The notes under the pieces were generated by a model that ran no database searches, was not told where the DNA came from, and saw only the letters and a program-made list of their open reading frames with translations. Of a stretch of 64,000 nucleotides of DNA, positions 1-62,599 are shown in pieces. The DNA comes from an uncultured virus (IMG/VR IMGVR_UViG_3300025057_000006). Its lineage: Duplodnaviria > Heunggongvirae > Uroviricota > Caudoviricetes. The stretch lies in the IMG/VR virus record IMGVR_UViG_3300025057_000006, one strand, 5' to 3'. The translations under genes and the position numbers were made by a program. Within the stretch, counting starts at the first letter, position 1. Each line of letters starts with the position of its first letter.

Positions 1-379
1 CTGTGTTCTTGAATGCATAGGCATGACCATACACATATTGATCAGCTTCTTTCTTAGGAGGTAGCCATGCTGCGTACCACACTTGTTCGTAGTGATACAA
101 GATGGCAATAACTTTGAGGCGAGCCTGGGGAGTTGCTACGTCCACAGGCGTAGTAAATATCCGATAGCGATCAGGTGCTTTCTGCTGGTTGATGTGATCA
201 ATCGCAGCTTGTTGATCTGCTTCACGCACCACGTTATGTGGGATGAGGTGAGGGATGTTACCCAGTGGGTACTTGGACTTCTTAGTAGTTGCAGGCTTAG
301 CCTTTTGAACCAGCACCTTCAGTGTTGGGTCGTAGGCAAGAAGTTCGGTTTGCAGGTTGGAGGGAAGTTGGAATTGCAT
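1..379 (-). CDS. Hypothetical early-region protein (partial; runs off the left edge)
   Basis: Manual translation from ATG at 379 (MQFQLPSNLQTELLAYDP...) is open to the window edge; preceded by the ACTCAA leader shared with neighbouring genes. Not in the ORF track. Confidence 0.75.
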   Translation of the reverse strand, partial: MQFQLPSNLQTELLAYDPTLKVLVQKAKPATTKKSKYPLGNIPHLIPHNVVREADQQAAIDHINQQKAPDRYRIFTTPVDVATPQARLKVIAILYHYEQVWYAAWLPPKKEADQYVYGHAYAFKNT

Positions 380-401
380 TGAATTGAGTTGGTAAAAGGA
401 A

Positions 402-429
402 TGGGCAGTTTAACGTCGTACCCAGGACG
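402..429 (-). ncRNA. Putative H-type pseudoknot cis-element (family C, copy 1)
   Basis: Minus strand CGUC-C-UGGGUA-C-GACG-UUAAAC-UGCCCA: 4-bp stem 1 and 6-bp stem 2; intergenic. Confidence 0.55.
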
Positions 430-438
430 GTTAGTCAG

Positions 439-696
439 TTAGTCAGGGTCACCTACTGAAGTGTCGAGTAGTTGCCACTGAGGATCGAGGTTATCAAGAT
501 AGGCACAGAAGCCATCTTCATCAAGAGGAATAGGTTCCCCTGGATCCAGTTCAATAGTTGTTTGACACAATGCTGGAGCCCACTCTTCAGGTTCGAAACG
601 AGTTGCCCGATAAAGCAAGCGCATTTCGTCAACAACTGCTGTAACAGTGACATGAGTGTCGGTGAATGAGGTGTCTTCGATTGCAAGGACAGTCAT
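439..696 (-). CDS. Hypothetical acidic protein
   Basis: ORF track 85 aa; coupled to the upstream gene (shared base 696). Confidence 0.75.
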   Translation of the reverse strand: MTVLAIEDTSFTDTHVTVTAVVDEMRLLYRATRFEPEEWAPALCQTTIELDPGEPIPLDEDGFCAYLDNLDPQWQLLDTSVGDPD

Positions 697-881
697 TAGT
701 TATCCTCTATGTAGGAATAGGTGGAGTACTTTACAAGGCGGTACTTCATCCACAGGCGTGCGGTGTCGTACTCACCTTCAAATCGTGTTGAATCCAACAC
801 ATTGTCTGATGCTCTGCGCCGTGCGCAGGCGGCAAGATTGATGCGATCAAACATGTTGATGTTGTCGGTTACTGCAGACAT
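696..881 (-). CDS. Hypothetical protein
   Basis: ORF track 61 aa; leader ACTCAACTCAACTC-ATG. Confidence 0.75.
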   Translation of the reverse strand: MSAVTDNINMFDRINLAACARRRASDNVLDSTRFEGEYDTARLWMKYRLVKYSTYSYIEDN

Positions 882-907
882 GAGTTGAGTTGAGTAGGTG
901 GACAGGG

Positions 908-937
908 ACTGGGACTTACACCGTAAGGATGCCCAGT
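908..937 (-). ncRNA. Bulged-hairpin cis-element (family A, copy 1)
   Basis: ACUGGG-CA-U-CC-UUAC-GG-UG-UAAGU-CCCAGU. Confidence 0.65.
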
Positions 938-940
938 TAC

Positions 941-1117
941 TTATAAATACAATATGGGATGATCTATATCAAGTACACCACATTCTTCTGTGGCAAAAGC
1001 AATTTCATCCTGAATTGCATAATATTCTTCACTGTCACAGACATAAACAGTTACGTCCATGTTCAGTTGTTCTTGACTCATTTCTTCAAGTTGAACTAAA
1101 AGTTCTCGATAGGTCAT
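941..1117 (-). CDS. Small hypothetical protein (58 aa, MTYRELLVQLEEMSQEQLNMDVTVY...)
   Basis: Manual translation; fills the gap in the co-oriented block. Confidence 0.7.
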   Translation of the reverse strand: MTYRELLVQLEEMSQEQLNMDVTVYVCDSEEYYAIQDEIAFATEECGVLDIDHPILYL

Positions 1118-1123
1118 AATTCT

Positions 1124-1324
1124 TCAGAATAATTTAATGTTTCGTTTGCTTAGTCCTGTGCCAGGGATACTGACTGATCCACGGACACCAGACTCACGAG
1201 CATTGAGTGTGAGTTGGAACGGACCAAGCTGAAACGATTTGGTGTACGACTGGATGCCACGTTCTGTGACGTTGAATCCAGCGATGGTCTTGTCAAAGTT
1301 GAGTGGTGATTTGTCTTTAGTCAT
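1124..1324 (-). CDS. DUF4236-like small protein
   Basis: C-terminal GSVSIPGTGLS resembles the IPGTGLS signature of DUF4236. Confidence 0.55.
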   Translation of the reverse strand: MTKDKSPLNFDKTIAGFNVTERGIQSYTKSFQLGPFQLTLNARESGVRGSVSIPGTGLSKRNIKLF

Positions 1325-1482
1325 TCTTTGTGCTCCATAATAATGTCAATTAGTTCATCAACTGATTCACCAATGCCCTCGGCATCTGAATACAATTGAC
1401 CATAAGATTCTTCAGACAGGGCAGCAATAACTAACCACAGAAGAGATTTCAATGCATTAACTTGTCTCTGTTGCTTATTCAT
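1321..1482 (-). CDS. Small hypothetical protein (53 aa)
   Basis: Manual translation MNKQQRQVNALKSLLWLVIAALSEE...; ATGA overlaps with both neighbours. Confidence 0.65.
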   Translation of the reverse strand: MNKQQRQVNALKSLLWLVIAALSEESYGQLYSDAEGIGESVDELIDIIMEHKE

Positions 1483-1688
1483 TTGAGGTCATCCGGTAGG
1501 AGTGCCTGTGAATCTTCTTCGTCCATGTTGGACATAACAAACTTCTCTCCATTGGGGGCAATAAAGCCCCCGATGAAACCAATGCCATACTTGTCTGCAG
1601 ATTCTTTCATCTTGGCAACAAGTTGCATTGCTTGAAGTCTTTCCATATCCAGAGAATCTGGAATACGAGGAAGGTTGGAGTTGCTCAT
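1479..1688 (-). CDS. Hypothetical protein
   Basis: ORF track 1479..1739; start moved to ATG 1688 behind an ACTCAACTCAA leader. Confidence 0.7.
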   Translation of the reverse strand: MSNSNLPRIPDSLDMERLQAMQLVAKMKESADKYGIGFIGGFIAPNGEKFVMSNMDEEDSQALLPDDLK

Positions 1689-1841
1689 TGGAATTGAGTT
1701 GAGTAACGGGAGTAGTCTACCAGTGTTGTCAAGGATCAATAGATAGATAAGTAATGGTTATACATGGTAGATAACATCTATCTATATAAGAGATATCCCT
1801 GGTACTCCCCTGCGGGGGTCCAGGGGGTAAATACTTATGTA

Positions 1842-2117
1842 CTACCTGTGCATTTCTTGATGTTCTTTCCATGCAGCAGTGTGCATTTCATCAAGAGTGC
1901 TGGGTGGTTCACCTGGTTCATTAGGTGTTGGATCGTAGTCGATCTCATCTTCAAGCATTCCAATTACCTCTAATACAACATCTGCTGTATGCGGTGTGAG
2001 ATGCTCGTCCATTTGATGGCGCTTACTCTCACGTTCTTGGATTGCCTTGAGGAGATTCACAACTTCTTGCAGTTGGTGATACTCGTTCTTCTTCCAGTTG
2101 ATTTCAGGGTAGGCCAT
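1842..2117 (-). CDS. Hypothetical protein
   Basis: ORF track 91 aa; ACTCAA leader. Confidence 0.75.
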   Translation of the reverse strand: MAYPEINWKKNEYHQLQEVVNLLKAIQERESKRHQMDEHLTPHTADVVLEVIGMLEDEIDYDPTPNEPGEPPSTLDEMHTAAWKEHQEMHR

Positions 2118-2146
2118 GGTTGAGTTGGAGTTAGGGTTGAGGTAAA

Positions 2147-2189
2147 ACCTGGGACTTACACACCTAGTTGGCGTCGGTGATGCCCAGGT
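2147..2189 (-). ncRNA. Bulged-hairpin cis-element (family A, copy 2)
   Basis: ACCUGGG-CA-U-CACC-loop-GGUG-UG-UAAGU-CCCAGGU. Confidence 0.65.
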
Positions 2190-2193
2190 ATTG

Positions 2194-2439
2194 TTAACGT
2201 ATTAGCTTTGGATCTGTCATGATCCAGCCAGTGTAGTTATCACTGCTGCGATCAACGTGTATTAAACCGTACATTTCCAGTTTGATCAATGCCTGGAGAT
2301 ATTGCTCAAGCCTGGAGCTTTGAGCGGGAAGCCTTGGAACAAAACATGGTGTGTCCCCATGCTTCTTCTTGTGGTTTAAGAAATATGTATAAAGATTACG
2401 TTGGTTGATCGTGAGTGCAACAGGTGCAGCTGCTGGCAT
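2194..2439 (-). CDS. Hypothetical protein, possibly winged-helix
   Basis: ORF track 81 aa; LTxNQRxLY...LxKLExYGLI pattern is wHTH-like. Confidence 0.65.
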   Translation of the reverse strand: MPAAAPVALTINQRNLYTYFLNHKKKHGDTPCFVPRLPAQSSRLEQYLQALIKLEMYGLIHVDRSSDNYTGWIMTDPKLIR

Positions 2440-2442
2440 GAG

Positions 2443-2811
2443 TTAGCAGTAGTGAGGTTTGGTCTGAGGGTACGCACGAGCCAGTGCGTTGGAAAACATT
2501 AGCTCGTAATTCGAGTAGGTGGTTGAGTCTCCAAGGGAAGGCTGACCTTCGATCTCGTACTCTTCGAAGTACTGGATGTAGGTTTGGATCGCTTGCTTCT
2601 TGGAGAAGATGCAGTGGCTAAGGACTGGGTATCCTGCTTGGTACCACCACCCACCTTCTTCTGGACCGCCGTAGTTGAGCGTCGTTTCGTGGATGGTGAT
2701 GACCGTTGGATCTTCATGTTCCCAATACTTGTGCTGGTTGTAGGCTCCGATTGCGTATCGGGCCTTGTAAGTGTTGGGGTAGAACTTCTTGAGTTCTGAG
2801 ATGTAAGACAT
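2443..2811 (-). CDS. Hypothetical protein
   Basis: ORF track 122 aa; YGGPEEGGWWY motif typical of phage hypothetical proteins. Confidence 0.75.
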   Translation of the reverse strand: MSYISELKKFYPNTYKARYAIGAYNQHKYWEHEDPTVITIHETTLNYGGPEEGGWWYQAGYPVLSHCIFSKKQAIQTYIQYFEEYEIEGQPSLGDSTTYSNYELMFSNALARAYPQTKPHYC

Positions 2812-2906
2812 GATGCAAACTCCGTAATGATGATTGAAATGATTGCGATCAGGATGATGATGATGTCACCTTCATCCCATGCTTGTTTCAGTGTGTAGTT
2901 AGTCAT
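2499..2906 (-). CDS. Small membrane protein with an overlapping Ser/Thr-rich tail
   Basis: N-terminal Ile-rich TM helix; start coupled to the stop of 2899..3090; tail overlaps 2443..2811 in another frame. Confidence 0.45.
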   Translation of the reverse strand: MTNYTLKQAWDEGDIIIILIAIISIIITEFASCLTSQNSRSSTPTLTRPDTQSEPTTSTSIGNMKIQRSSPSTKRRSTTAVQKKVGGGTKQDTQSLATASSPRSKRSKPTSSTSKSTRSKVSLPLETQPPTRITS

Positions 2907-3090
2907 TGATTACATACCTCTCGTTGTAATGGTCACAAGCATTTCGTTCGGCACTTGAAATTTCTTCAATGCCGTCCCATTCAAATGCTTCTGATTCACG
3001 CATAGCTTCTTCTTGCTCGTAGGCAATGTCAGACATTGCGTCAAGGAAGTCTGCGTTGCGTTGTTCATCAATGAAGTTAAAGTCTTTCAT
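2899..3090 (-). CDS. Hypothetical acidic protein
   Basis: ORF track 63 aa; ACTCAA leader. Confidence 0.7.
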   Translation of the reverse strand: MKDFNFIDEQRNADFLDAMSDIAYEQEEAMRESEAFEWDGIEEISSAERNACDHYNERYVIND

Positions 3091-3118
3091 GGTTTGAATT
3101 GAGTAAGGTTTGCAGTTG

Positions 3119-3173
3119 ACCTGGGACTTATACCACGTAATTGAGAAGAGTTCTCAACTGTGGATGCCCAGGT
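3119..3173 (-). ncRNA. Bulged-hairpin cis-element (family A, copy 3)
   Basis: ACCUGGG-CA-U-CCAC...GUGG-UA-UAAGU-CCCAGGU; apex contains TTGAGAA-N3-TTCTCAA. Confidence 0.65.
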
Positions 3174-3175
3174 GT

Positions 3176-3400
3176 TCAGTGTGGGATGAAGTCAGTGTCA
3201 TGAAGTAGCTGATGAACTGTCAAACAATCCTCAGCTACTTCGTCTCTGGTACATCCGTCCCAGTCTTCAGTCTGGTCTTCAATCACTTCGCAGCCAGCAT
3301 CTTCGAGCTGATCGACGAAATGATTCCAGCTCCTTGGTACACCCCAGACATGTGCGTAACGTCCGCTGCGATCAGCGACCAGTGCGACTGTGAATGCCAT
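3176..3400 (-). CDS. Hypothetical protein
   Basis: ORF track 3176..3526; start moved to MAFTVALV at 3400. Confidence 0.7.
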   Translation of the reverse strand: MAFTVALVADRSGRYAHVWGVPRSWNHFVDQLEDAGCEVIEDQTEDWDGCTRDEVAEDCLTVHQLLHDTDFIPH

Positions 3401-3581
3401 TGGTGGTGACGGGGGTAGAGGGGGAAGTGATATCAACACCGACAAGGGATGTAGCGGTGATGATGGTGATGATGACAGAGAAGGCGGCAATGGCAATAGA
3501 CCAACGGCGATTCTCATGAGACTCACCGTAAGAATCTAGGGTCACGTACTTGCCCTTGCCCATGGAGTAAATGCGTTTCAT
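3372..3581 (-). CDS. Small membrane protein
   Basis: ORF track 69 aa; one hydrophobic helix. Confidence 0.65.
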   Translation of the reverse strand: MKRIYSMGKGKYVTLDSYGESHENRRWSIAIAAFSVIITIITATSLVGVDITSPSTPVTTNGIHSRTGR

Positions 3582-3582
3582 G

Positions 3583-3738
3583 TCAGTTGTACTCCAGTAA
3601 TGCTGTGTTCTTGATGGTGCCGTTCTGATAACGGTGCACTAAACGTTGCAGGTTAGTCCTGTGAAAAACAACAGTGTTGTATTCCTCGATAGGAACATAA
3701 CCTAGCCTGCGCATTAGCTTGTTGATAATCTGTTTCAT
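3583..3738 (-). CDS. Small hypothetical protein (51 aa)
   Basis: Manual translation MKQIINKLMRRLGYVP...; CTCAACTCAA leader. Confidence 0.6.
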   Translation of the reverse strand: MKQIINKLMRRLGYVPIEEYNTVVFHRTNLQRLVHRYQNGTIKNTALLEYN

Positions 3739-3761
3739 TTGAGTTGAGATGTTGGGTATAC

Positions 3762-3812
3762 GTAGCCCTCGTTGAGGACTACAGAGAAGGGCCGAAGCCC
3801 CTCAGTGTAGTC
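3762..3812 (-). ncRNA. Alternative-pairing double-hairpin element (family B, copy 1)
   Basis: GACUACAC-U-GAGGGGC-UUCG-GCCCUUC-U-CUGUAGUCCUC-AAC-GAGGGCUAC. Confidence 0.6.
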
Positions 3813-3813
3813 G

Positions 3814-4059
3814 TCAGTCTTGTTCCAGTTGCCTCCGTTCCCACCGAAGCAGATCTCGGTTCAGATCTACCTTACGCTGCACGATAGCAACGAAAGGAAC
3901 AAGGTCTTGGAATTGACGCATACCGTCTTGCCACTCGAAAAACAACTCGAGAGCAGCTTGGCGCTGCGCCTCAAGTTCCTGGTCGATAGCAGGGGCATCT
4001 CTCCTGGCGAGCAGACGAGCGTCTTGGATCAGGAGATGTTCAACAGCTTTAGGAGTCAT
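3814..4059 (-). CDS. Hypothetical helical protein
   Basis: ORF track 3814..4134; start moved to MTPKAVEH at 4059. Confidence 0.7.
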   Translation of the reverse strand: MTPKAVEHLLIQDARLLARRDAPAIDQELEAQRQAALELFFEWQDGMRQFQDLVPFVAIVQRKVDLNRDLLRWERRQLEQD

Positions 4060-4090
4060 GGTTGAGTCCAGTTGGTGTCGTGTGGTGTAG

Positions 4091-4150
4091 TGCAGAGCTA
4101 AGCCCTGCAGAAACCCATCACATCCAGTGGACATGATGGGAAAGTGCAGA
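4091..4150 (-). ncRNA. Family B element, copy 2
   Basis: UCUGCAC-UUU-12-bp hairpin-UUU-CUGCAGGGC-UUA-GCUCUGCA. Confidence 0.6.
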
Positions 4151-4152
4151 GA

Positions 4153-4356
4153 TCAGTTGATGTACTTACTGTTGATGCAGTAGTACGTATCGCCAAGGAA
4201 TCCTTGGACGTAAATCAAATTATGTCCTGGTCGGTCATGGCACGTTGCTTGGTAGTGCTTGTTGAGAAGCTTCTGCATTCCAACAGAGCCAAGTAAACCC
4301 ACGCCAGTGCCAAGAATGATAGCCACACAGGAGTCAACAAAGTGATTGCTTGACAT
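4153..4356 (-). CDS. Small membrane protein with a Cys pair
   Basis: ORF track 67 aa; N-terminal TM helix. Confidence 0.7.
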   Translation of the reverse strand: MSSNHFVDSCVAIILGTGVGLLGSVGMQKLLNKHYQATCHDRPGHNLIYVQGFLGDTYYCINSKYIN

Positions 4357-4358
4357 GA

Positions 4359-4547
4359 TCAGATGTTGTTCTTGGGGGTGATGACGAATGCCATGTCGTT
4401 GGGCATCATGAGTGCCGCTGCACGCAGACGATACTCATTCAGCTTGGTACGAGCAGCATCCTTGGTAGGAAGCTTGGCATTCTCTACAGCAGCAGCTGTG
4501 TTGACCAGCAGTGCTGCAATGTTCTTACGAATGTGTAATGCAGTCAT
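4359..4547 (-). CDS. Hypothetical protein
   Basis: ORF track 62 aa; ACTCAACTCA leader. Confidence 0.7.
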   Translation of the reverse strand: MTALHIRKNIAALLVNTAAAVENAKLPTKDAARTKLNEYRLRAAALMMPNDMAFVITPKNNI

Positions 4548-4568
4548 GGTCTGAGTTGAGTTAGTGGA

Positions 4569-4640
4569 TACAGGATGTTGAGTCCTGCAGTAAACCCACC
4601 GCCGATACGAATTCGTATCAACGGAAGGGTTAAGTGCAGA
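4569..4640 (-). ncRNA. Family B element, copy 3
   Basis: UCUGCAC-UUA-hairpin (apex is palindrome GATACGAATTCGTATC)-UUA-CUGCAGGA-CUCAACA-UCCUGUA. Confidence 0.6.
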
Positions 4641-4646
4641 AGTCGA

Positions 4647-4919
4647 TTACATCAGTTGGTACCTACGTTCTTGCTCCATGGCAATGGAGTAGTTGTAATA
4701 GTCTTCCATCTCCATGAGCATATCCTTCATGGATGTTGGTAGACCACTGCCGAGTGTACGTACGTCACGGTCTTGCCACTCTTGCCATTCGGCATTTGTG
4801 TCTGGGTCAAAGAGATTCCAAAGCTTCTCGAAATGAAGCTGGGTAGACTCTCCGCCATACCATGTGACACGATACTTACGTTCGGCAGATGGTTTGTAAA
4901 CGAGTGCAGGAGTTTGCAT
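4647..4919 (-). CDS. Hypothetical protein
   Basis: ORF track 90 aa; ACTCAACTCAA leader. Confidence 0.75.
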   Translation of the reverse strand: MQTPALVYKPSAERKYRVTWYGGESTQLHFEKLWNLFDPDTNAEWQEWQDRDVRTLGSGLPTSMKDMLMEMEDYYNYSIAMEQERRYQLM

Positions 4920-4942
4920 GGTGTTGAGTTGAGTGGACTGTG

Positions 4943-4990
4943 TACAGGATGTTGAGTCCTGTTGAGGGGACCGTAGTCCCCAGAGCAGGA
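4943..4990 (-). ncRNA. Family B element, copy 4
   Basis: UCCUGCUC-U-GGGGAC-UACG-GUCCCC-U-CAACAGGA-CUCAACA-UCCUGUA; shares 19 identical nt with copy 3. Confidence 0.6.
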
Positions 4991-4995
4991 ATCAG

Positions 4996-5184
4996 TTAGA
5001 TCTCGTAGCCGTTGGTGATACACCAATCACGGTGGATTTGATCAGCCTCCTTGGGCCAGTCATGAGTAATACATTGCTTGGCAGTTGCCTTATCAATGAA
5101 GTAAGCAGCAACTGGACCAGCGATGATACCCATGGCGAATGCCTGAATGATGATCAGTGCAGCTACGTTGTGTCCTTTGATCAT
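4996..5184 (-). CDS. Small membrane protein with a Cys pair
   Basis: ORF track 62 aa; N-terminal TM helix. Confidence 0.7.
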   Translation of the reverse strand: MIKGHNVAALIIIQAFAMGIIAGPVAAYFIDKATAKQCITHDWPKEADQIHRDWCITNGYEI

Positions 5185-5210
5185 GGTCGTGTTGAGTGCA
5201 ATGGAACGTC

Positions 5211-5235
5211 GCTACGTTTAACGTCCAGCTCGACG
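5211..5235 (-). ncRNA. Putative pseudoknot (family C, copy 2)
   Basis: CGUC-GAGCUG-GACG-UUAAAC-GUAGC; loop GCUG can pair with UAGC. Confidence 0.5.
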
Positions 5236-5303
5236 AAGCCTCGCTTAATTACTGTCCTATCTCAAACCCGTTGGGGGGCGGGGGATTTCCCAACCTTACG
5301 CAC

Positions 5304-5319
5304 GATACGAATTCGTATC
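5304..5319. promoter_or_regulatory. 16-bp perfect palindrome, putative operator (second copy at 4604-4619)
   Basis: GATACGAATTCGTATC occurs identically twice, both in intergenic DNA. Confidence 0.55.
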
Positions 5320-5398
5320 AGACCAGGAATTGTGTACAGAATGTACGGTGTTGAGGGCTATATAAACCCCTGGCTCTCACCAGGGGAATAGATAACCG

Positions 5399-5680
5399 TC
5401 AGACCTTGTGGATCATGACGCACTTGAGTCCGTCTTCTGTTGTATAGATTCTCATGCTCAGCTTCTCGCCTCGCATGTCACATACAACTTGAAACAGATA
5501 TTGTGGCTGACAGATCTGGCGCAGCTCACTGTAGATGAACTCCGCCGAGCTAAAGTCCTCCAGCAATTCGTATGCCATCTCCACATAGCTGTGGAAAAGC
5601 TTCGCATTGCTTTCGGTCGGTCGCTCGCCTGTCTTCTGGCGCCAGTCATACTGCCAGCGCTTTGCCTGTTGTCCTTGCAT
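5399..5680 (-). CDS. Hypothetical protein
   Basis: ORF track 93 aa; co-oriented with the early block. Confidence 0.45.
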   Translation of the reverse strand: MQGQQAKRWQYDWRQKTGERPTESNAKLFHSYVEMAYELLEDFSSAEFIYSELRQICQPQYLFQVVCDMRGEKLSMRIYTTEDGLKCVMIHKV

Positions 5681-5925
5681 GGTATGGTATGCAGTGGTAC
5701 TCTGCGTGGTACGGATGCGCAGCCCCCGCTATCTATATCAAACCCCTCCACCTTTCTTTTTTTCTATACAGGATCCAATTCGGTCAGGGTGTTGGAGAAG
5801 CGTCAGGTAATTTTGTACCCTATTTGCCCTATATAAGGCCCCTCTTTGTAGTAATAAATACCTATTTTTGTAATTTACATTGTATTTTTGTATGTAATTT
5901 TCCTAATTAACCCCAAAATTCCAAC

Positions 5926-5950
5926 AAAAAACCGGGGTTTTACCCCCGGT
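5926..5950 (-). terminator. Intrinsic terminator
   Basis: ACCGGGG/CCCCGGT stem followed by a T run on the minus strand, downstream of 5977..6183. Confidence 0.7.
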
Positions 5951-5976
5951 AACCAATTAAAATTTAAAATACGTCT

Positions 5977-6183
5977 TTAGAATGTATTTTGTGCTTTTTG
6001 CGATGCTTTTAAAGCAGAGGCATATTGCTGCCAGTCGGGTTTTTGACGCGCTAACTCGCCTCTTGCTGCAGAGACAAACGTTTGTACCTCAAAAGGTTCT
6101 TTGCCCTGGTCTATTAATTCTTCTGCTTTTGATTTAATTGCTTCCAGGCCAATGACCCGTTGCATTCTGTCTTTTTCGTCCAT
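5977..6183 (-). CDS. Hypothetical protein
   Basis: ORF track 68 aa; followed by a terminator. Confidence 0.7.
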   Translation of the reverse strand: MDEKDRMQRVIGLEAIKSKAEELIDQGKEPFEVQTFVSAARGELARQKPDWQQYASALKASQKAQNTF

Positions 6184-6310
6184 GGCTTAATTTTATTTTC
6201 CCCCTAATCGGAGGTAAAACTCGGGCTTGTTTTAAGTCTATAACACTTATTTTTTTAAATTCTTGCCTTTAAAATAAAAATAACAAGCAATATCAAACAT
6301 ATTTATTCTC

Positions 6311-9300
6311 ATGGCCCTTTCCCCCTTGGATTTTGCTGCATATAGTCGTGCAACTGGGACTCCATACCCAGAAGATCCGGAAGAAAGGGCACAATTAGCC
6401 CCGGAAGTGGCGGAATTTCGGCGTAATCAGGTCCGTCAACCGCAAGAAAGCTCCAATTTACTGGAAACTTTGGGTATTGCAGCCTTGGGGCTAGGCACAC
6501 TTGTTGGTGCTGGCCTGGCTGGTAATCGTATGTTGCGTGGTGGCGGCGTAAAAACCACTTCTGCTGCCCCTGGGACGCAAGTAACAAAGATTCCAACCGG
6601 TGCTGTAGAGCAAATCCGGCGAGAAGGGGTGCCAGCTCCTGTTGCACCTTCAAAAGTTGCAGCAATTCCCCAGGCAACTGTTGATTTACCTTCTCCTTTA
6701 CCCAAGCAAGAGCGGATGGTACGTCGTCACGGGCGAATGGTACCTGCTTCCTCTGTTCAACGCACGGCAGCTGCAATTCCAGAGGCAACTGTTGATGTTG
6801 CCGACAAATTAATTGAGAAATATCGAGCTGATTACGAACGTGCTGCCCCATTTGAGTATGGTGCTGAACTTTCGCGTCAATCACGGATTGCCAAAGGTAA
6901 TGAAGCCTTAATTGATGATGTGCTTGAGCAAATTCGCTCAGAGCCATCTGCTCCTGCCCGTGAATTTAATGTCGATCAATTCCTAAAAGAGAACGAAGGT
7001 TTATATCGTCGTCTAGTTTCTGCAGAAGACGTAAAAGAAAAACGTGTCCTTGGGGCAGAGTTTTTTGAACAATTGCGTTCTGGCCAGTTTCCTGAAAGGG
7101 AAGCTCCATCGACGGCGCTCCCAACACGCGCCAATCAACCTGGTGCATTTACTGACCTTACTTCCATTCAGGACCAGCTTTTAAATCAAGCTCGCAATCA
7201 ACAAGTCAATGCTGTTGAAGCAGGGGAAGATCAAGTTACTCAACGCGCACGTCGTAAAACAACTTCGTTGTTTCGGTCGCAAACAGCGGAGACTTCTCCT
7301 GCACTGCAAAAACTATATGATGCTGGTCTTGATGATTTTGAAATCAACGCGCGTATTAATGCGTTTGCTCAATACAACAAACCAGAATTCCTGGATCCCA
7401 ACTATAACTCTGCAACTGTTGGCCCCGAAAACTTTGCACGCACACTCGATGTTAATGCAGCGGAATTTGATCGCTCTGGTAGGTTAATTGGTGGTGAGTA
7501 TGCCAGTGGATCACAAACAGTAGAAGTAGTGGCTGGTTCACCATTAAAAAGAAGTGCTGGTCCTGCTTTGCCAAGCAAATATGTCACTCTTCCCGAAGGA
7601 GAAATTAAACGTTCCGCATTTGCTTCTCAGCAACCAAGGCCGGTTCGTACCCGCAGTCAAAATGACGAAGAAACTTGGGAACCTATCAGTGAAGCACTGA
7701 CTGGTCTAACGGGTGGCGTTAGTACAGCTGCTGTGCCATTGATGCAGTCTGAACAATACCAAGAAGCAATCAACAATTTCCGTGGTTACTGGGACGACCA
7801 AGTTCGTGCTCATCTTGCAGGCGAACAATCCAGCATCACGCGTCCAGCACGCCGTAATCGTTTGGTTGACAGTTATGACCTAGACATGCCGGTGCGTCTG
7901 CGTAACGTGGAAACACGAAACGAAGCTGGCGACCTGGTGAAAACAACTGAAACCGTCTTGTACCGCGATGTATTACCTCAGGAAACAGTGGAGGCAATTG
8001 AACGTGGTGAGCAGATGAACCTTGACGTACCATTCTTGGTCGATAAAAACAGGGCCATTGCTGTTGCAGAAGCCAATCCAACTGTTCAGAATCGTTTGAA
8101 CGCGGAGCAATACAAAGCGACAGGCCGTGCCCTAGTACGTGCACACCAAAAGATTGTTGGTCCCTATGCCGATGATCAGTTCATGGCGGATCTACGGGAA
8201 ACGGCTTATTTCCAGCGTGCAGTCAATCCTGAAGGGCAACTTGATGTGACCCCTGGTTTTGGTCGTGGCTCACAAAAAGGCCGTTTAGTTGGTGGCGTTG
8301 CAGAAGAACTTGTACAGGAACCTGTGTATAACCTTTACTATGCACCACACACGACCAAGGCAGGAAACAAAATCCTTGTTAATAAAACACAGGTGCTTGA
8401 CGAAAACGGCAATGTTGGTGAACTTGGGATTACCGACTTAACCCAACTCAATCAAATTGGTATTGCAAAAGATGCAACAGGTGCAGAACTTGTTGTTTCT
8501 CCTGGCCAACAACTTGAGTACATCACAACCCAACCAATGTCTGTTAAACGTCCCTTAAAACAAGGTGCGCCGCCTGTCGGCCAGATTACCCGAGAAGGTA
8601 AATACGGACAATTCACCAGCGATGTGTATGAAGCAGCTGAAACAATTGTTCAGGCGCCTCTTCAAGTATTAGATGCCAAAACAGGCAAAACTATCAGTGG
8701 TACTGGCCAAATCAAACGTGGTGAACTTGCTGGCTTCCTGAATGGTTTGCGTACTGCCACTGGCATTAAAGATTACGCAGAACTTGGCTCGCTTGCCAAT
8801 CGCATGCTGGCTGAACAAAAGGGAGTAACACTGCCTGTGCTCGATTCGCCAACTGCTTTTGATTTTATCGAAGGTGTGATCGGTCGCCCTGGCAGCCGCT
8901 CATCGCGCAAGTCTTTCGTGACTGTTAACCAAAAAACTGGCGATGTGTATCCGCTCTCCAGAGAAGAAGCACAACAACTTGGATTTTCAGGTGGTTCAGT
9001 TGTTGATCCTTCTCTCTCACGTAAGTATGTTGGCCCACCATCCTTAGATATCCGCCAGTCTCCTAAGAGTATGGAATCGTGGTCTCGCATGGGAGAAGGT
9101 GAGGCTGACTGGGAACAGTACAAAGACTTTGGCGAGGAAGCTCTAGGTGTTGCAAACGTTGGTGTTTTGGCGCCGCGTCGCCCAGGAGAATTACAGCAAC
9201 GCCTATCACCAGCAACAACAGGACCTGGCGCTGAACTGCAAGCATTAAGGGAACAAATTGCTAAAATTGAACCTAAAGAAACACGTATTTCTTCTGAACC

Positions 9301-25798: not shown

Positions 25799-26260
25799 GT
25801 GCAGCTGTCTGATTTTGACAAAAGCAGGGTCCGGTATCACCTGGGCTACTTCACGGTTTCCGTGCCAGCGGGCGACTATGCTCGCTTGGAAGAGGCCATG
25901 AATACGGTCCCAGATTCGTATTTTTACGATAAGATCATTATTCAGATTGGTCGCTGTGATACTGCTGAGAAGAAGACAGAGGTTGCGACTTCTCCTTCCA
26001 CTCGCCTTGAGAGTATTGCTGGTGATGTGGATCGTACGATTCGCTCTAGCAACGCTAAGGAGGCGCTTAAGGTCTGGGATGAGATTTATCTCTATGAGAC
26101 CAACCGTTTAGCCGGTATCCTTTACGTTCCAAACTACAAGGATCCGTTCCAGGCTCGTTACCGTTACGAACGCTCTGGTGCCGAATTCATCCAGGCATTA
26201 CCTGGTCCCGCCGACACAGCTGTTGGTTCTCGTCTTTATTTACATGAGGTTTGGAGGTAG
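25799..26260 (+). CDS. Probable head-tail adaptor/neck protein
   Basis: Helical 153 aa; RVRYHLG N-terminal pattern; position after the capsid genes. Confidence 0.5.
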   Translation: MQLSDFDKSRVRYHLGYFTVSVPAGDYARLEEAMNTVPDSYFYDKIIIQIGRCDTAEKKTEVATSPSTRLESIAGDVDRTIRSSNAKEALKVWDEIYLYETNRLAGILYVPNYKDPFQARYRYERSGAEFIQALPGPADTAVGSRLYLHEVWR

Positions 26261-26262
26261 TT

Positions 26263-27078
26263 ATGGCAATTCCTGGCGGAATGATGGACCGTGTTATTCA
26301 GGCACGCAAACAACAGCCTGGCTATAACCCGAATATTCTTGGTCCCCTTGGTCAACTTATGACTGGTGTAGGGAATTTAATTCAAGGACGCCCTTACGGA
26401 ACCAGCTTTACTGGAGTCGGTAACATCCCTCCTAGTGCCAGGGGGGAATCTTATCGTCGTGCCGAATTGCGCCTGGCAGATGCAGCACGCCCCGGCGGAG
26501 GAGGCGGTGGCGGTGGTAATGCCGGTTACTCCGTGACTCCCTTTTCTTTTCCCGCAGCAGAACGTGCTTACCAGTCAGATAAAGCGGCTATTGCTCAACA
26601 AGTAGCTAAGGATCCGCGTTTATCTCAGTACGAGCGTGATAGTGCAGCAGCCGTAGCTTCTGGCGATCAAGCCAGGATGGATGCTGTGCGTGACCAGGGG
26701 ATGGCAATCTGGGCGCAGAAAAATCCAGAATTAGCCAAGAAAGTAAAACCCGGCCAGGTTGGCTACGAAGCGATTCAGAGAGCCTTGTACCCAGGGGGCG
26801 CTCCTCTTCCTGCACTCCCCGCTGAATCAGAAGCAATGCTTAATGCGATTGCGCCAGTCGATGCCACAGGTATTCGTCCCGATGTAACGCCAATGCCTGG
26901 ACAACTGCCTGCATTCGGTACTGCATCTGATGCAATGTATCAAGCAGTTATTGGCAATGGTGCAGCCTTTACTCCAATGCCACAACAACAAGCTTTTATG
27001 ACTCCTCAGTTACAAGCGCAAGAACTTGCTGAAGCAGAAAAACAAGCAATGCTTGCACGTATTTTTGCCCAAAAATAA
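26263..27078 (+). CDS. Low-complexity hypothetical virion protein
   Basis: GGAGG SD before ATG 26263; poly-Gly tract. Confidence 0.75.
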   Translation: MAIPGGMMDRVIQARKQQPGYNPNILGPLGQLMTGVGNLIQGRPYGTSFTGVGNIPPSARGESYRRAELRLADAARPGGGGGGGGNAGYSVTPFSFPAAERAYQSDKAAIAQQVAKDPRLSQYERDSAAAVASGDQARMDAVRDQGMAIWAQKNPELAKKVKPGQVGYEAIQRALYPGGAPLPALPAESEAMLNAIAPVDATGIRPDVTPMPGQLPAFGTASDAMYQAVIGNGAAFTPMPQQQAFMTPQLQAQELAEAEKQAMLARIFAQK

Positions 27079-27083
27079 TATAC

Positions 27084-27110
27084 TTGGCGTTGCTTAGCAT
27101 GTAAGTCCAA
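27084..27110 (+). ncRNA. Family A element, copy 4 (plus strand)
   Basis: UUGG-CG-U-UGC-UUA-GCA-UG-UAAGU-CCAA; same fold as copies 1-3 with compensatory changes. Confidence 0.6.
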
Positions 27111-27164
27111 CCAGCTGGATACGAATCTTTGATTCACGGAGGCCAGTGTTGTTGCTTTAAACCA

Positions 27165-62525: not shown

Positions 62526-62599
62526 CGGGGATTAGCGCAGTTTGGTAGCGCATCTGCTTTGGGAGCAGAGGGTCGCAGGTTCAAATCCTGCATCTCCGA
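62526..62599 (+). tRNA. trnP: tRNA-Pro(TGG)
   Basis: Canonical cloverleaf; anticodon loop TTTGGGA; CCA not encoded. Confidence 0.95.

Follow-up and report, generated by a model that had tools for sequence, protein, structure and literature searches.

Nine short folded elements, which fall into three families (A, B and C), lie between small genes on the minus (sense) strand near one end of a 64,000-nucleotide (nt) stretch of DNA from an uncultured virus (IMG/VR record IMGVR_UViG_3300025057_000006; Caudoviricetes). The whole stretch is referred to here as the window, and represents most of the genome of a cyanophage of lake origin resembling S-EIV1. The elements define three well-supported, uncatalogued RNA families that are common to unrelated cyanophage lineages. 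What might such elements do? The explanation to which we tentatively incline is that the folds are 5'-side protective roadblocks, which would protect the cistron behind each of them against RNase J and against 5'-end-dependent decay.

Nine folded elements between small genes

The first-pass annotation of this DNA had described nine elements of three families in the minus-strand block of small genes, and all nine were located (Table 1). It had most of them beginning 1-10 nt after a stop codon, which holds for eight (2-9 nt) and fails for the copy of C at 5211-5235; it also had them ending some 20-30 nt before the next ATG, and the distance is indeed 22-31 nt in all nine. None has a U-tail, as had been said, and a terminator scan of bases 1-6500 reports none of the nine. 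Most spacers longer than about 40 nt had been said to hold one element; not all long ones do, as none of the nine lies in the spacer 1689-1841 (153 nt) or in the stretch 2812-2898 (87 nt). Promoter-like sites (-35 and -10 hexamers spaced by 16-18 nt) overlap none of the elements, and six such sites were found against 9.9 +/- 3.5 in shuffled sequences. Folding z-scores for the two copies of C (-0.3 and -0.8) are not significant, as is expected of pseudoknots, to which nested folding is blind. Behind every element comes a C/A-rich leader; these leaders are conserved, poor in G, carry ACUCAAYUCA and are without a Shine-Dalgarno sequence.

Table 1. Elements and related features of the window, with the distances separating them from the flanking codons
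Feature	Position	Strand	Preceding stop codon	Following ATG	Description
A1	3121-3171	-	3176-3178, 4 nt	3090, 30 nt	Pattern match; CUGGG / CAU / long variable upper hairpin / UAUAAGU / CCCAG; model match 3173-3119, 34.4 bits, E 3e-6; folding z-score -5.1
A2	2149-2187	-	6 nt	2117, 31 nt	Pattern match; model 35.1 bits, E 2e-6; folding z-score -2.4
A3	909-936	-	4 nt	881, 27 nt	Minimal 28-nt form; pattern match; model 48.6 bits, E 1e-9; folding z-score -2.3
B1	4938-4993	-	6 nt	4919, 25 nt	Lower CCUG/CAGG stem, internal loop, UACG-capped GC upper hairpin, alternative hairpin CAGGACUCAACAUCCUG; conformations -20.1 / -19.6 kcal/mol; folding z-score -4.6
B2	4567-4642	-	6 nt	23 nt	Palindrome GATACGAATTCGTATC in upper hairpin; orthologues in related contigs; conformations -33.5 / -31.4 kcal/mol; folding z-score -6.9
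B3	4088-4152	-	2 nt	31 nt	Conformations -28.5 / -29.3 kcal/mol, the minimum-energy fold being the second; folding z-score -5.0
B4	3758-3813	-	2 nt	22 nt	Conformations -23.8 / -24.9 kcal/mol; folding z-score -3.7
C, subtype b	5211-5235	-	163 nt	5184, 26 nt	Pseudoknot CGUC-GAGCUG-GACG-UUAAAC-GUAGC with shorter stem 2; inside 214-nt spacer
C, subtype a	402-429	-	9 nt	379, 22 nt	Pseudoknot CGUC-C-UGGGUA-C-GACG-UUAAAC-UGCCCA, coremin-like core
Leader	380-401	-			Carries ACUCAAUUCA directly before ATG; stands for the leaders behind the nine elements
ACTCAAYTCA copies	380-389, 881-890, 886-895, 1695-1704, 3095-3104, 4552-4561, 4925-4934	-			Exact matches
Weak A-like variant (uncertain)	27081-27113	+			UUGG / CGU / UGC..GCA / UGUAAGU / CCAA; model 13.6 bits, E 0.33; folding z-score -0.3

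That the elements act as RNA, as had been proposed, is borne out by their confinement to the sense strand, their covarying stems and their fixed position relative to stop and start codons. The modularity read into them is likewise evident in relatives, since one and the same orthologous gene may have A, B or C ahead of it, depending on the phage. Among 24 distinct sequences upstream of one orthologous gene, 16 have C, two have A and six have neither, and the 26 distinct sequences upstream of another comprise 11 with A, one with C and 14 with something else. Such interchange, taken with the constant placement of the elements, points to a generic rather than a gene-specific role.

Compensatory changes in related phage contigs back the folds of all three families, so that the covariation which the first-pass annotation proposed to seek in homologues does exist. 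Nor do the elements match a described Rfam family, the other possibility it had raised: a search of 300-6300 against Rfam 15 at E up to 10 gave two chance-level matches (to animal RNAs), and nine loci from the other lineages, searched at E up to 1, yielded a single match, again of chance level. Searches of the openly readable literature, in records that did not include the original S-EIV1 genome paper, found no description of such elements in phages, and among the S-EIV1 records listed there was no paper on its intergenic RNAs.

Structure and spread of the three families

Scans of IMG/VR were seeded with patterns, so the counts from them are lower bounds and lean to the consensus. Family A, a hairpin whose internal loop (C-A-U / U-R-U-A-A-G-U) hardly varies, has the consensus CUGGG-CAU-variable hairpin-URUAAGU-CCCAG. 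The pattern occurs in at least 142 stretches in IMG/VR (at least 125 distinct instances and at least 86 distinct element sequences). With relaxed arms, 93 distinct sequences had complementary arms, against none in a reversed control, the variants including AUGGG/CCCAU, CUAGG/CCUAG and CUUGG/CCAAG. The seed alignment of 37 rows has 90.1% of its cells paired, a value reached by none of 500 shuffles, but these rows were picked for a paired outer stem, so that the counts lean towards the fold; pair 2-33, which flanks the stem and on which no selection was made, occurs as six pair types.

Over the whole 64 kb, the covariance model for A finds exactly the three copies at E<=3e-6 and one weak variant, which lies on the sense strand just behind an open reading frame (ORF; 26251-27078) in the structural gene block. 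There were 165 matches to the model in 52 S-EIV1-like loci, with several per locus on one strand (as checked in L009 and L017), and relatives have 3-7 copies per operon. The best 150 matches include 75 that are distinct, in which (on an alignment fitted to the model, so that these counts too lean towards the fold) 99.4% of cells are paired and four of the seven pairs show compensatory changes (outer pairs CG 70/AU 4 and GC 65/AU 5/UA 5; inner pairs CG 57/UA 17 and CG 49/AU 17/UA 3/GC 2); neither the proportion of paired cells nor the covariation score was reached in 500 shuffles. In the internal loop, the C, the UAAG and the adjoining G-C pairs are present in 75 of 75, while the rest varies, as do the apical loops and the gap between the two conserved halves (8 to 34 nt). 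An ORF ending within 40 nt upstream and an ATG-initiated ORF within 70 nt downstream were found on the sense strand for 88 of 123 distinct instances, against eight on the antisense strand, with medians of 4 nt from the stop codon and 30 nt to the ATG (interquartile range (IQR) 27-31).

Family A also occurs beyond S-EIV1-like loci, two other cyanophage-like lineages included. In one other lineage it lies between a 153-amino-acid ORF and a 350-amino-acid ORF, the product of the latter being 66% identical to the major capsid protein of Synechococcus phage S-CBWM1; a second, high-GC group has a terminase with 51% identity to its counterparts in the Synechococcus phages S-CBS1 and S-CBS3; and in a third there are only weak portal matches. 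Within flanks of 4 kb, these other A-bearing lineages share no protein with the window at E 1e-4. The hosts of the uncultured lineages are deduced from the nearest isolates, of which S-EIV1 itself has two copies of A, as well as B elements, and S-CBWM1 and S-CBS1 have no match to A. The A model had no match in 151 cyanobacterial genomes searched (in which part of the candidates were scored). In 596 Gb of prokaryote genomes, the A pattern gave at least 120 matches, evenly spread in length from 22 to 51 nt and without an obvious inner hairpin; by our estimate some 500 would be expected by chance, and we read them as such and use them as a negative control. Among the matches listed, the exception is a real-looking copy with a leader of the S-EIV1 type on an apparent phage contig (L259).

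What does the invariant loop of A represent? In the 11-nt receptor for GAAA tetraloops (CCUAAG...UAUGG), UAAG opposite AU forms an A-A platform, and A likewise has an invariant UAAG opposite (C)AU. A differs, however, in having two extra letters (U-R) before UAAG and a C in place of the U opposite G, and its apical loops vary, a partner tetraloop not having been identified. The invariance of the loop suggests that it adopts a defined tertiary shape, but it could equally be the mark of a binding partner. Two other identities were rejected: a kink-turn, as no G-A/A-G tandem is seen by eye at the places needed, and a promoter based on TATAAGT, as most copies have TGTAAGT, the distance between the halves varies and the arms are complementary. 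Pairing of GUAAGU in A with ACUUAC in the leader is possible in some copies only.

Two variations on A may be recorded here. In one lineage (L030, L116, L070, L095, L042), A seems to be one arm of a larger fold without a match in Rfam, in which GCGCA...UGCGC encloses A and a second covarying hairpin and is followed by a boxA-like GCGCUCUUUG. In the high-GC lineage (L011, L023, L034, L041, L094, L109), irregular 8-mers containing GGC (..GGCACGGCGCGGCUGGGC..) form a long run downstream of A.

Family B appears to be an element with two states. Orthologous spacers in related contigs have four parts in common: the lower stem, an internal loop that is small and rich in pyrimidines, an upper hairpin that is GC-rich, differs in length and often ends in a UUCG, UACG or GCAA loop, and a second hairpin. 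In the first conformation a helix of 6-7 base pairs (bp) is separated by an internal loop of 2x2 to 4x4 from one of 5-12 bp. The first hairpin, in 19 aligned rows, has 94.4% of its cells paired and 11 of 14 pairs altered on both sides, which none of 500 shuffles matched. Two pairing partners are open to the 3' arm of the lower stem (UGCAGG as a rule), namely the 5' arm and a third segment lying downstream, and minimum-energy folds alternate between these two states among homologues, constrained energies being no more than 3 kcal/mol apart in 28 of 37 (two of the 37 were mis-parsed). When the middle segment changes (to UACAG or UGUAG), both of its partners change too. In B4 all three pairing segments are altered together (ACUACA / UGUAGU / GGCUACG), and the same triple change is found in its orthologues L062 and L058; this triple covariation amounts to two events, each change lying within one orthologous group. 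The 22-31 nt before the AUG are unpaired in the predicted folds of both conformations. An exact 20-nt pattern from the second hairpin occurs in 60 IMG/VR stretches, on contigs that are mostly smaller than 86 kb (one is of 126 kb).

A stretch of 19 nt is identical in the second hairpins of B2 and B1 (4569-4587 and 4943-4961), suggesting that sequence was recently copied from one spacer to another. There are two copies of the perfect 16-nt palindrome GATACGAATTCGTATC, at the tip of the upper hairpin of B2 (4604-4619) and in the 214-nt spacer (5304-5319), and the palindrome behaves like a small insertion, being present in one orthologous B element (L078:680-754) and absent from another (L045:766-826). 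After the orthologue of gene 5184-4996 in L016, L071, L062, L080, L001 and L052, B is replaced by a fourth type of element, not represented among the nine of the window, which consists of UCCGUUAAAGCGG and then a single hairpin or a pair of them, the loops being UGCAAWCC-like.

Family C is an H-type pseudoknot of 4 + 6 bp, which in orthologues reads CGUC-C-UGRRYA-U-GACG-UUAAAC-UGYYYA. An alignment of ten pairs over both stems has 85.8% of its cells paired, with five out-of-register subtype-b rows included; five of the six pairs of stem 2 are altered on both sides, a score reached in none of 500 shuffles, and G-U pairs (15) outnumber A-C oppositions (5). The subtype b of 5211-5235 is found also in L058, L062, L071 and L080, and a U/C change there keeps stem 2 paired. 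The 14-base pattern for C occurs in IMG/VR in at least 129 distinct sequence contexts, with at least 125 distinct element sequences; 78 of the 129 contexts listed have a stem 2 of at least 5 bp, and these 78 share letters beyond the pattern. Sense-strand ORFs lie on both sides in 49 of 79 such instances, against three antisense, with medians of 6 nt after the stop codon (IQR 5-9) and 22 nt before the ATG (IQR 20-28), although one orthologue starts about 24 nt after its stop. The pattern had no match in 401 cyanobacterial genomes searched.

Judged by its sequence, C is akin to a motif that is described in the literature outside the Rfam matches: coremin (xrRNA-C), an exoribonuclease-resistant RNA (xrRNA) of beny-, cucumo- and other plant RNA viruses. 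Compared with the coremin 20-mer printed in PMC10520033, C has the same GUC/GAC hairpin and an identical 11-letter run, GACGUUAAACU. The first hairpin is of 4 bp in both (C-GUC ... GAC-G); CGUC/GACG is present in 29 of 34 aligned rows of C, and in the other five the same stem is shifted by two columns. Both are compact, at about 28 nt, and both are also intergenic.

For coremin, a first hairpin of 3-4 bp with a loop of the form YGAD (tetraloop) or YGNNAD (hexaloop), a conserved spacer with essential adenines and C-U, and a required second hairpin have been described (PMC6546385), though one octaloop outside the loop rule still worked (PMC10520033). Its proposed pseudoknot joins loop letters 6 and 7 to spacer letters 20 and 19, a Watson-Crick variant (xrRNA-WCC) has been selected, and the first loop letter is irreplaceable (PMC10321173). 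These rules were set with Xrn1 and eukaryotic ribosomes.

How far does C conform? We compared 75 distinct IMG/VR instances that were chosen for a stem 2 of at least 5 bp, so that the counts given next lean towards the fold. The loop is of 8 nt (C-U-R-R-R-Y-A-U) and fits neither YGAD nor YGNNAD. Of the 75, 73 begin it with Y (C in 72, U in one) and 72 have A as the last letter but one; the last letter is U in 60, A in 8 and C in 7, and position 2 is U in 67, rather than the G of coremin. The letter next after UUAAAC is U in 72 of 75, and the penultimate loop A would pair with it, the same A-U contact as has been proposed for coremin (PMC10321173). The conserved letters of C (the first loop C, the penultimate A and its U partner) occupy positions that the coremin papers (PMC6546385, PMC10321173) find essential or propose to pair. 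Set against the 10-nt coremin spacer (G-UUAAACUAC), GUUAAACU is identical, and the next letter (G in 65 and A in 7 of 75) pairs in stem 2. UUAAAC was fixed by the IMG/VR search pattern, yet it is also invariant in the 34 rows collected with the requirement for GAC[GA]TTAAAC only.

The differences are no less clear. C belongs to a double-stranded DNA phage of cyanobacteria and not to a eukaryotic RNA virus; its stem 2 is of 5-7 Watson-Crick pairs, in place of the non-canonical contact of about two pairs proposed for coremin; and directly after the spacer, where coremin has its separate second hairpin, none was found, the letters after UUAAAC pairing back into loop 1 to form a stem of 5-7 bp. 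The enzyme that C would meet is RNase J, not Xrn1, and its resistance is putative. C is therefore coremin-like on paper yet fails two of coremin's tested rules. Two other identities for C were discarded: a preQ1-I riboswitch, there being no Rfam match and the letter before GACG varying (U, A, C), and a signal for stop-codon readthrough or frameshifting, as the spacing from the stop codon varies and, in the window, the next gene is in another frame.

Proposed roadblocks to decay and rival explanations

What we observe is a set of folds with its conservation, its position and strand, its spread among lineages, its interchangeability and, in C, the match to the core of coremin; from this we infer that the folds would resist nucleases. 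The nine elements would act in cis within the polycistronic mRNA transcribed from the minus-strand block of small genes, along which a unit of stop codon, compact fold, G-poor unstructured leader of 22-31 nt and AUG would be repeated. Once the long transcript was cut, or its 5' end attacked, the folds may halt 5'-to-3' exonucleolytic and 5'-end-dependent decay, for which RNase J and RNase E would be the probable host enzymes. The downstream cistron would thereby keep a protected 5' end and a free landing site for ribosomes, the leader providing just enough room for one.

The families may do this in different ways. C would be a Watson-Crick version of the coremin exoribonuclease-resistant pseudoknot, and A a small hairpin held in a specific shape by its nearly invariant internal loop. 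In B, loss or occupation of the 5' arm would let the middle segment refold with the third segment into a new 5'-proximal hairpin, while the upstream RNA would retain the GC-rich upper hairpin at its 3' end. There may be a parallel in the xrRNA of dianthoviruses and luteovirids, in which, as would happen in B, unwinding of a basal helix from the 5' side frees letters for pairing with a 3' segment, so that the resistant or final fold would form only after decay or cutting had begun; for the dianthovirus RNA this switch from stem-loop to pseudoknot has been termed 'co-degradational remodelling' (bioRxiv 10.1101/262683). B has no sequence similarity to that RNA, and no Rfam family was matched at E up to 10.

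That a bacterial enzyme can be so blocked is indicated by a flavivirus xrRNA, which stops RNase J1 of B. subtilis (PMC5760640), and RNase J of Synechocystis is a robust 5'-exonuclease on 5'-monophosphate RNA, for which its authors propose cutting by RNase E followed by trimming by RNase J (PMC7283877). The first-pass annotation had left open whether the elements serve processing, stabilisation or antitermination; stabilisation gains most, through the core that C has in common with coremin, and antitermination has received no positive evidence. The 5' stabiliser hairpins of bacterial and phage mRNAs (the ompA 5' stem-loop, the SP82 early RNA stabiliser), which are proposed to hinder 5'-end-dependent decay, occupy the same site, near the 5' end of the cistron and just outside the ribosome binding site. 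Such hairpins are not known to need a conserved sequence, whereas A and C have letters that hardly vary from one unrelated phage to another.

Several points weigh against the roadblock explanation. RNase J is unrelated to Xrn1, exonucleases normally unwind simple hairpins, and we know of no resistant counterpart of A or B. The strict conservation of the A loop fits a protein partner equally well, and the selection of rows in the A seed and of the 75 instances of C tilts both sets of counts in favour of the folds. C itself breaks rules of coremin, with its 8-nt loop, U at position 2 and want of the second hairpin that is needed for resistance to Xrn1 (PMC6546385). Among xrRNAs, it is the flavivirus type, and not coremin, that was tried on RNase J1 (PMC5760640).

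A bolder proposal from the same analysis, possible but in our view doubtful, is that cyanophages have a toolkit of at least three interchangeable classes of xrRNA aimed at the RNase J of bacteria, in which the core of C would have come to resemble coremin by convergence or by very old common descent, and A and B would be new resistant folds, B becoming protective only after decay had started. If so, DNA viruses of bacteria would have their first xrRNAs here, such RNAs being known from RNA viruses of eukaryotes; how phages protect single cistrons in bacteria that have a 5'-to-3' exonuclease is a largely unexplored subject. With a 28-nt knot that has the coremin core and recurs in many phage contigs about 22 nt before start codons, the question is directly testable with purified RNase J. 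C might then serve as a Watson-Crick model for the still unsolved fold of coremin, A and B might be new minimal modules for resistance or stabilisation, and all three might be parts for tuning operon expression in cyanobacteria. The families would merit description even under another mechanism.

Could the elements instead be mainly signals for endonucleolytic processing, in the manner of the RNase III sites of T7 early mRNA, where an endonuclease of host or phage would cut within the fold or next to it, with hairpins at the new ends a secondary matter? As in T7, repeated hairpins with internal loops and without a U-tail stand between the genes of one long, early-type transcription unit, and hairpins would be expected to be left at mRNA ends here as they are there. 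The stem, internal loop and stem of B resemble the layout of T7 sites, a cut placed on the internal loop's 3' side would suit the B segment that can re-pair once the 5' arm is lost, and the stop-codon regions directly 5' of A and C are rich in A and U. RNase III usually needs about two helical turns of mostly double-stranded RNA, however. Minimal forms of A (5, at most 7, bp plus 1-2 bp) and the 28-nt pseudoknot of C fall far below this, and B is borderline, so that the role for RNase III to which the first-pass annotation had alluded is implausible, in its canonical form, for A and C. Nor is there one fold, as in T7, but three unrelated ones, of which B has a third, refolding segment not known in the T7 sites, and cleavage here is putative. 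The processing explanation also leaves the identity of the C core with a nuclease-blocking motif unaccounted for, and on balance we think it unlikely, although a cut could create the very end that a roadblock then shields, and to that extent the two are compatible.

We give a somewhat lower probability to translational control, by insulation of ribosome binding sites against structure and ribosomes upstream or by ribosome stalling, or, in a variant for B, by a ribosome at the stop codon that would cover the first segment, flip the fold and so couple downstream initiation to upstream termination. The distance to the ATG is narrowly set (medians of 30 nt for A and 22 nt for C), the first arm of B begins 2-6 nt after the stop codon and so within the footprint of a terminating ribosome, the two conformations of B are nearly isoenergetic, and conserved G-poor leaders with ACUCAAYUCA and without a Shine-Dalgarno sequence follow the elements. 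Coremin, moreover, stalls scanning ribosomes and promotes frameshifting in eukaryotic extracts (PMC10520033, PMC10321173). Yet no on/off effect is evident in B, in both states of which the 22-31 nt before the AUG are unpaired; A and C have no alternative fold; and elements placed after stop codons are not crossed by elongating ribosomes.

A trans-acting protein that binds the elements, whether a phage regulator or antiterminator of the kind served by lambda boxB/nut and HK022 put or an RNA-binding protein of the host, seems improbable to us. It would account for the near-invariance of the A internal loop amid variable surroundings, and the presence of the same loop in lineages that have no detectable protein in common with this phage within their 4-kb flanks would fit a host factor of picocyanobacteria. 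It is hard, though, to square one binder with three unrelated folds that are exchanged ahead of the same gene, no candidate protein has been identified, and among the candidates scored in 151 cyanobacterial genomes there was no match to the A model. As to antitermination, put and nut act on RNA polymerase to read through terminators and are present as one or two sites behind early promoters; here there are no intrinsic terminators between the genes served, and relatives have 3-7 copies per operon.

That the elements work chiefly as DNA, as recombination-promoting cassette boundaries (a shuffling role that has been proposed for the promoter-stem-loop cassettes of T4-type phages) or as small mobile palindromes without function as RNA, is hardly credible, for although the elements beside a given gene differ from phage to phage, A and C are found in lineages that are unrelated, B1 and B2 have 19 nt in common and the 16-nt palindrome comes and goes in orthologous copies of B, this leaves the strict strand bias (88 to 8 for A, 49 to 3 for C), the fixed distance to start codons, the excess of G-U over A-C in C (15 to 5) and such RNA properties as pseudoknot topology and UUCG/GNRA-type loops unexplained; recombination at the repeats may be a side effect.

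The small-gene block and other spacer features

About 20 small minus-strand genes occupy bases 1-6183. For bases 1-6400, the only match in the phage collection was Synechococcus phage S-EIV1, with a patchy identity of about 73%; the nearest virus record (G001, a 65%-complete fragment) has nothing resembling this region and no match to family A. The remainder of the window (6.3-64 kb) has PHROGs names that include terminase, virion proteins, major head protein, endolysins, primase and exonuclease. The scan of 1-6500 found a strong intrinsic terminator at 5950-5931 (-), behind the first small gene, and a hairpin followed by UUUAUAUAG at 5386-5367 (-), behind the second, from which it appears that the element-bearing block begins behind 5367. 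The block may be early, as the first-pass annotation had it in calling this an early, host-takeover operon; the size and arrangement of the genes speak for it, and the occurrence of A ahead of a capsid gene in another lineage speaks against tying A to such operons.

The leader motif ACTCAAYTCA has seven exact matches in the 64 kb, all on the minus strand within 380-4934 and each directly before an ATG; when one mismatch was allowed there were 19, against 10.3 +/- 3.2 in shuffled sequences. One exact copy (1695-1704) is in the 153-nt spacer that has none of the nine elements. This spacer (1689-1841, minus strand, especially 1713-1734 and 1782-1789) has instead a hairpin of a C-run and a G-run, followed by UUAUAUAG and then by CCTTGACAAC.CTGGTAGACT, the last being kept in many relatives. 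Its GGGG..TTATATAG arrangement, which recurs at 5358-5365 and 5829-5836, may be a terminator-plus-promoter unit; occurrences of TTATATAG on the plus strand look random.

Finally, two observations concern other parts of the window. A tRNA gene at 62526-62599 (+) is the sole Rfam match at the gathering threshold in the whole of it. What looks like a gap of 87 nt ahead of gene 2811-2443 is taken up by a minus-strand ORF that starts at 2906 (2812-2906); its first 33 residues (MTNYTLKQAWDEGDIIIILIAIISIIITEFASC) have the look of a small membrane peptide, and a short unannotated gene may lie there.

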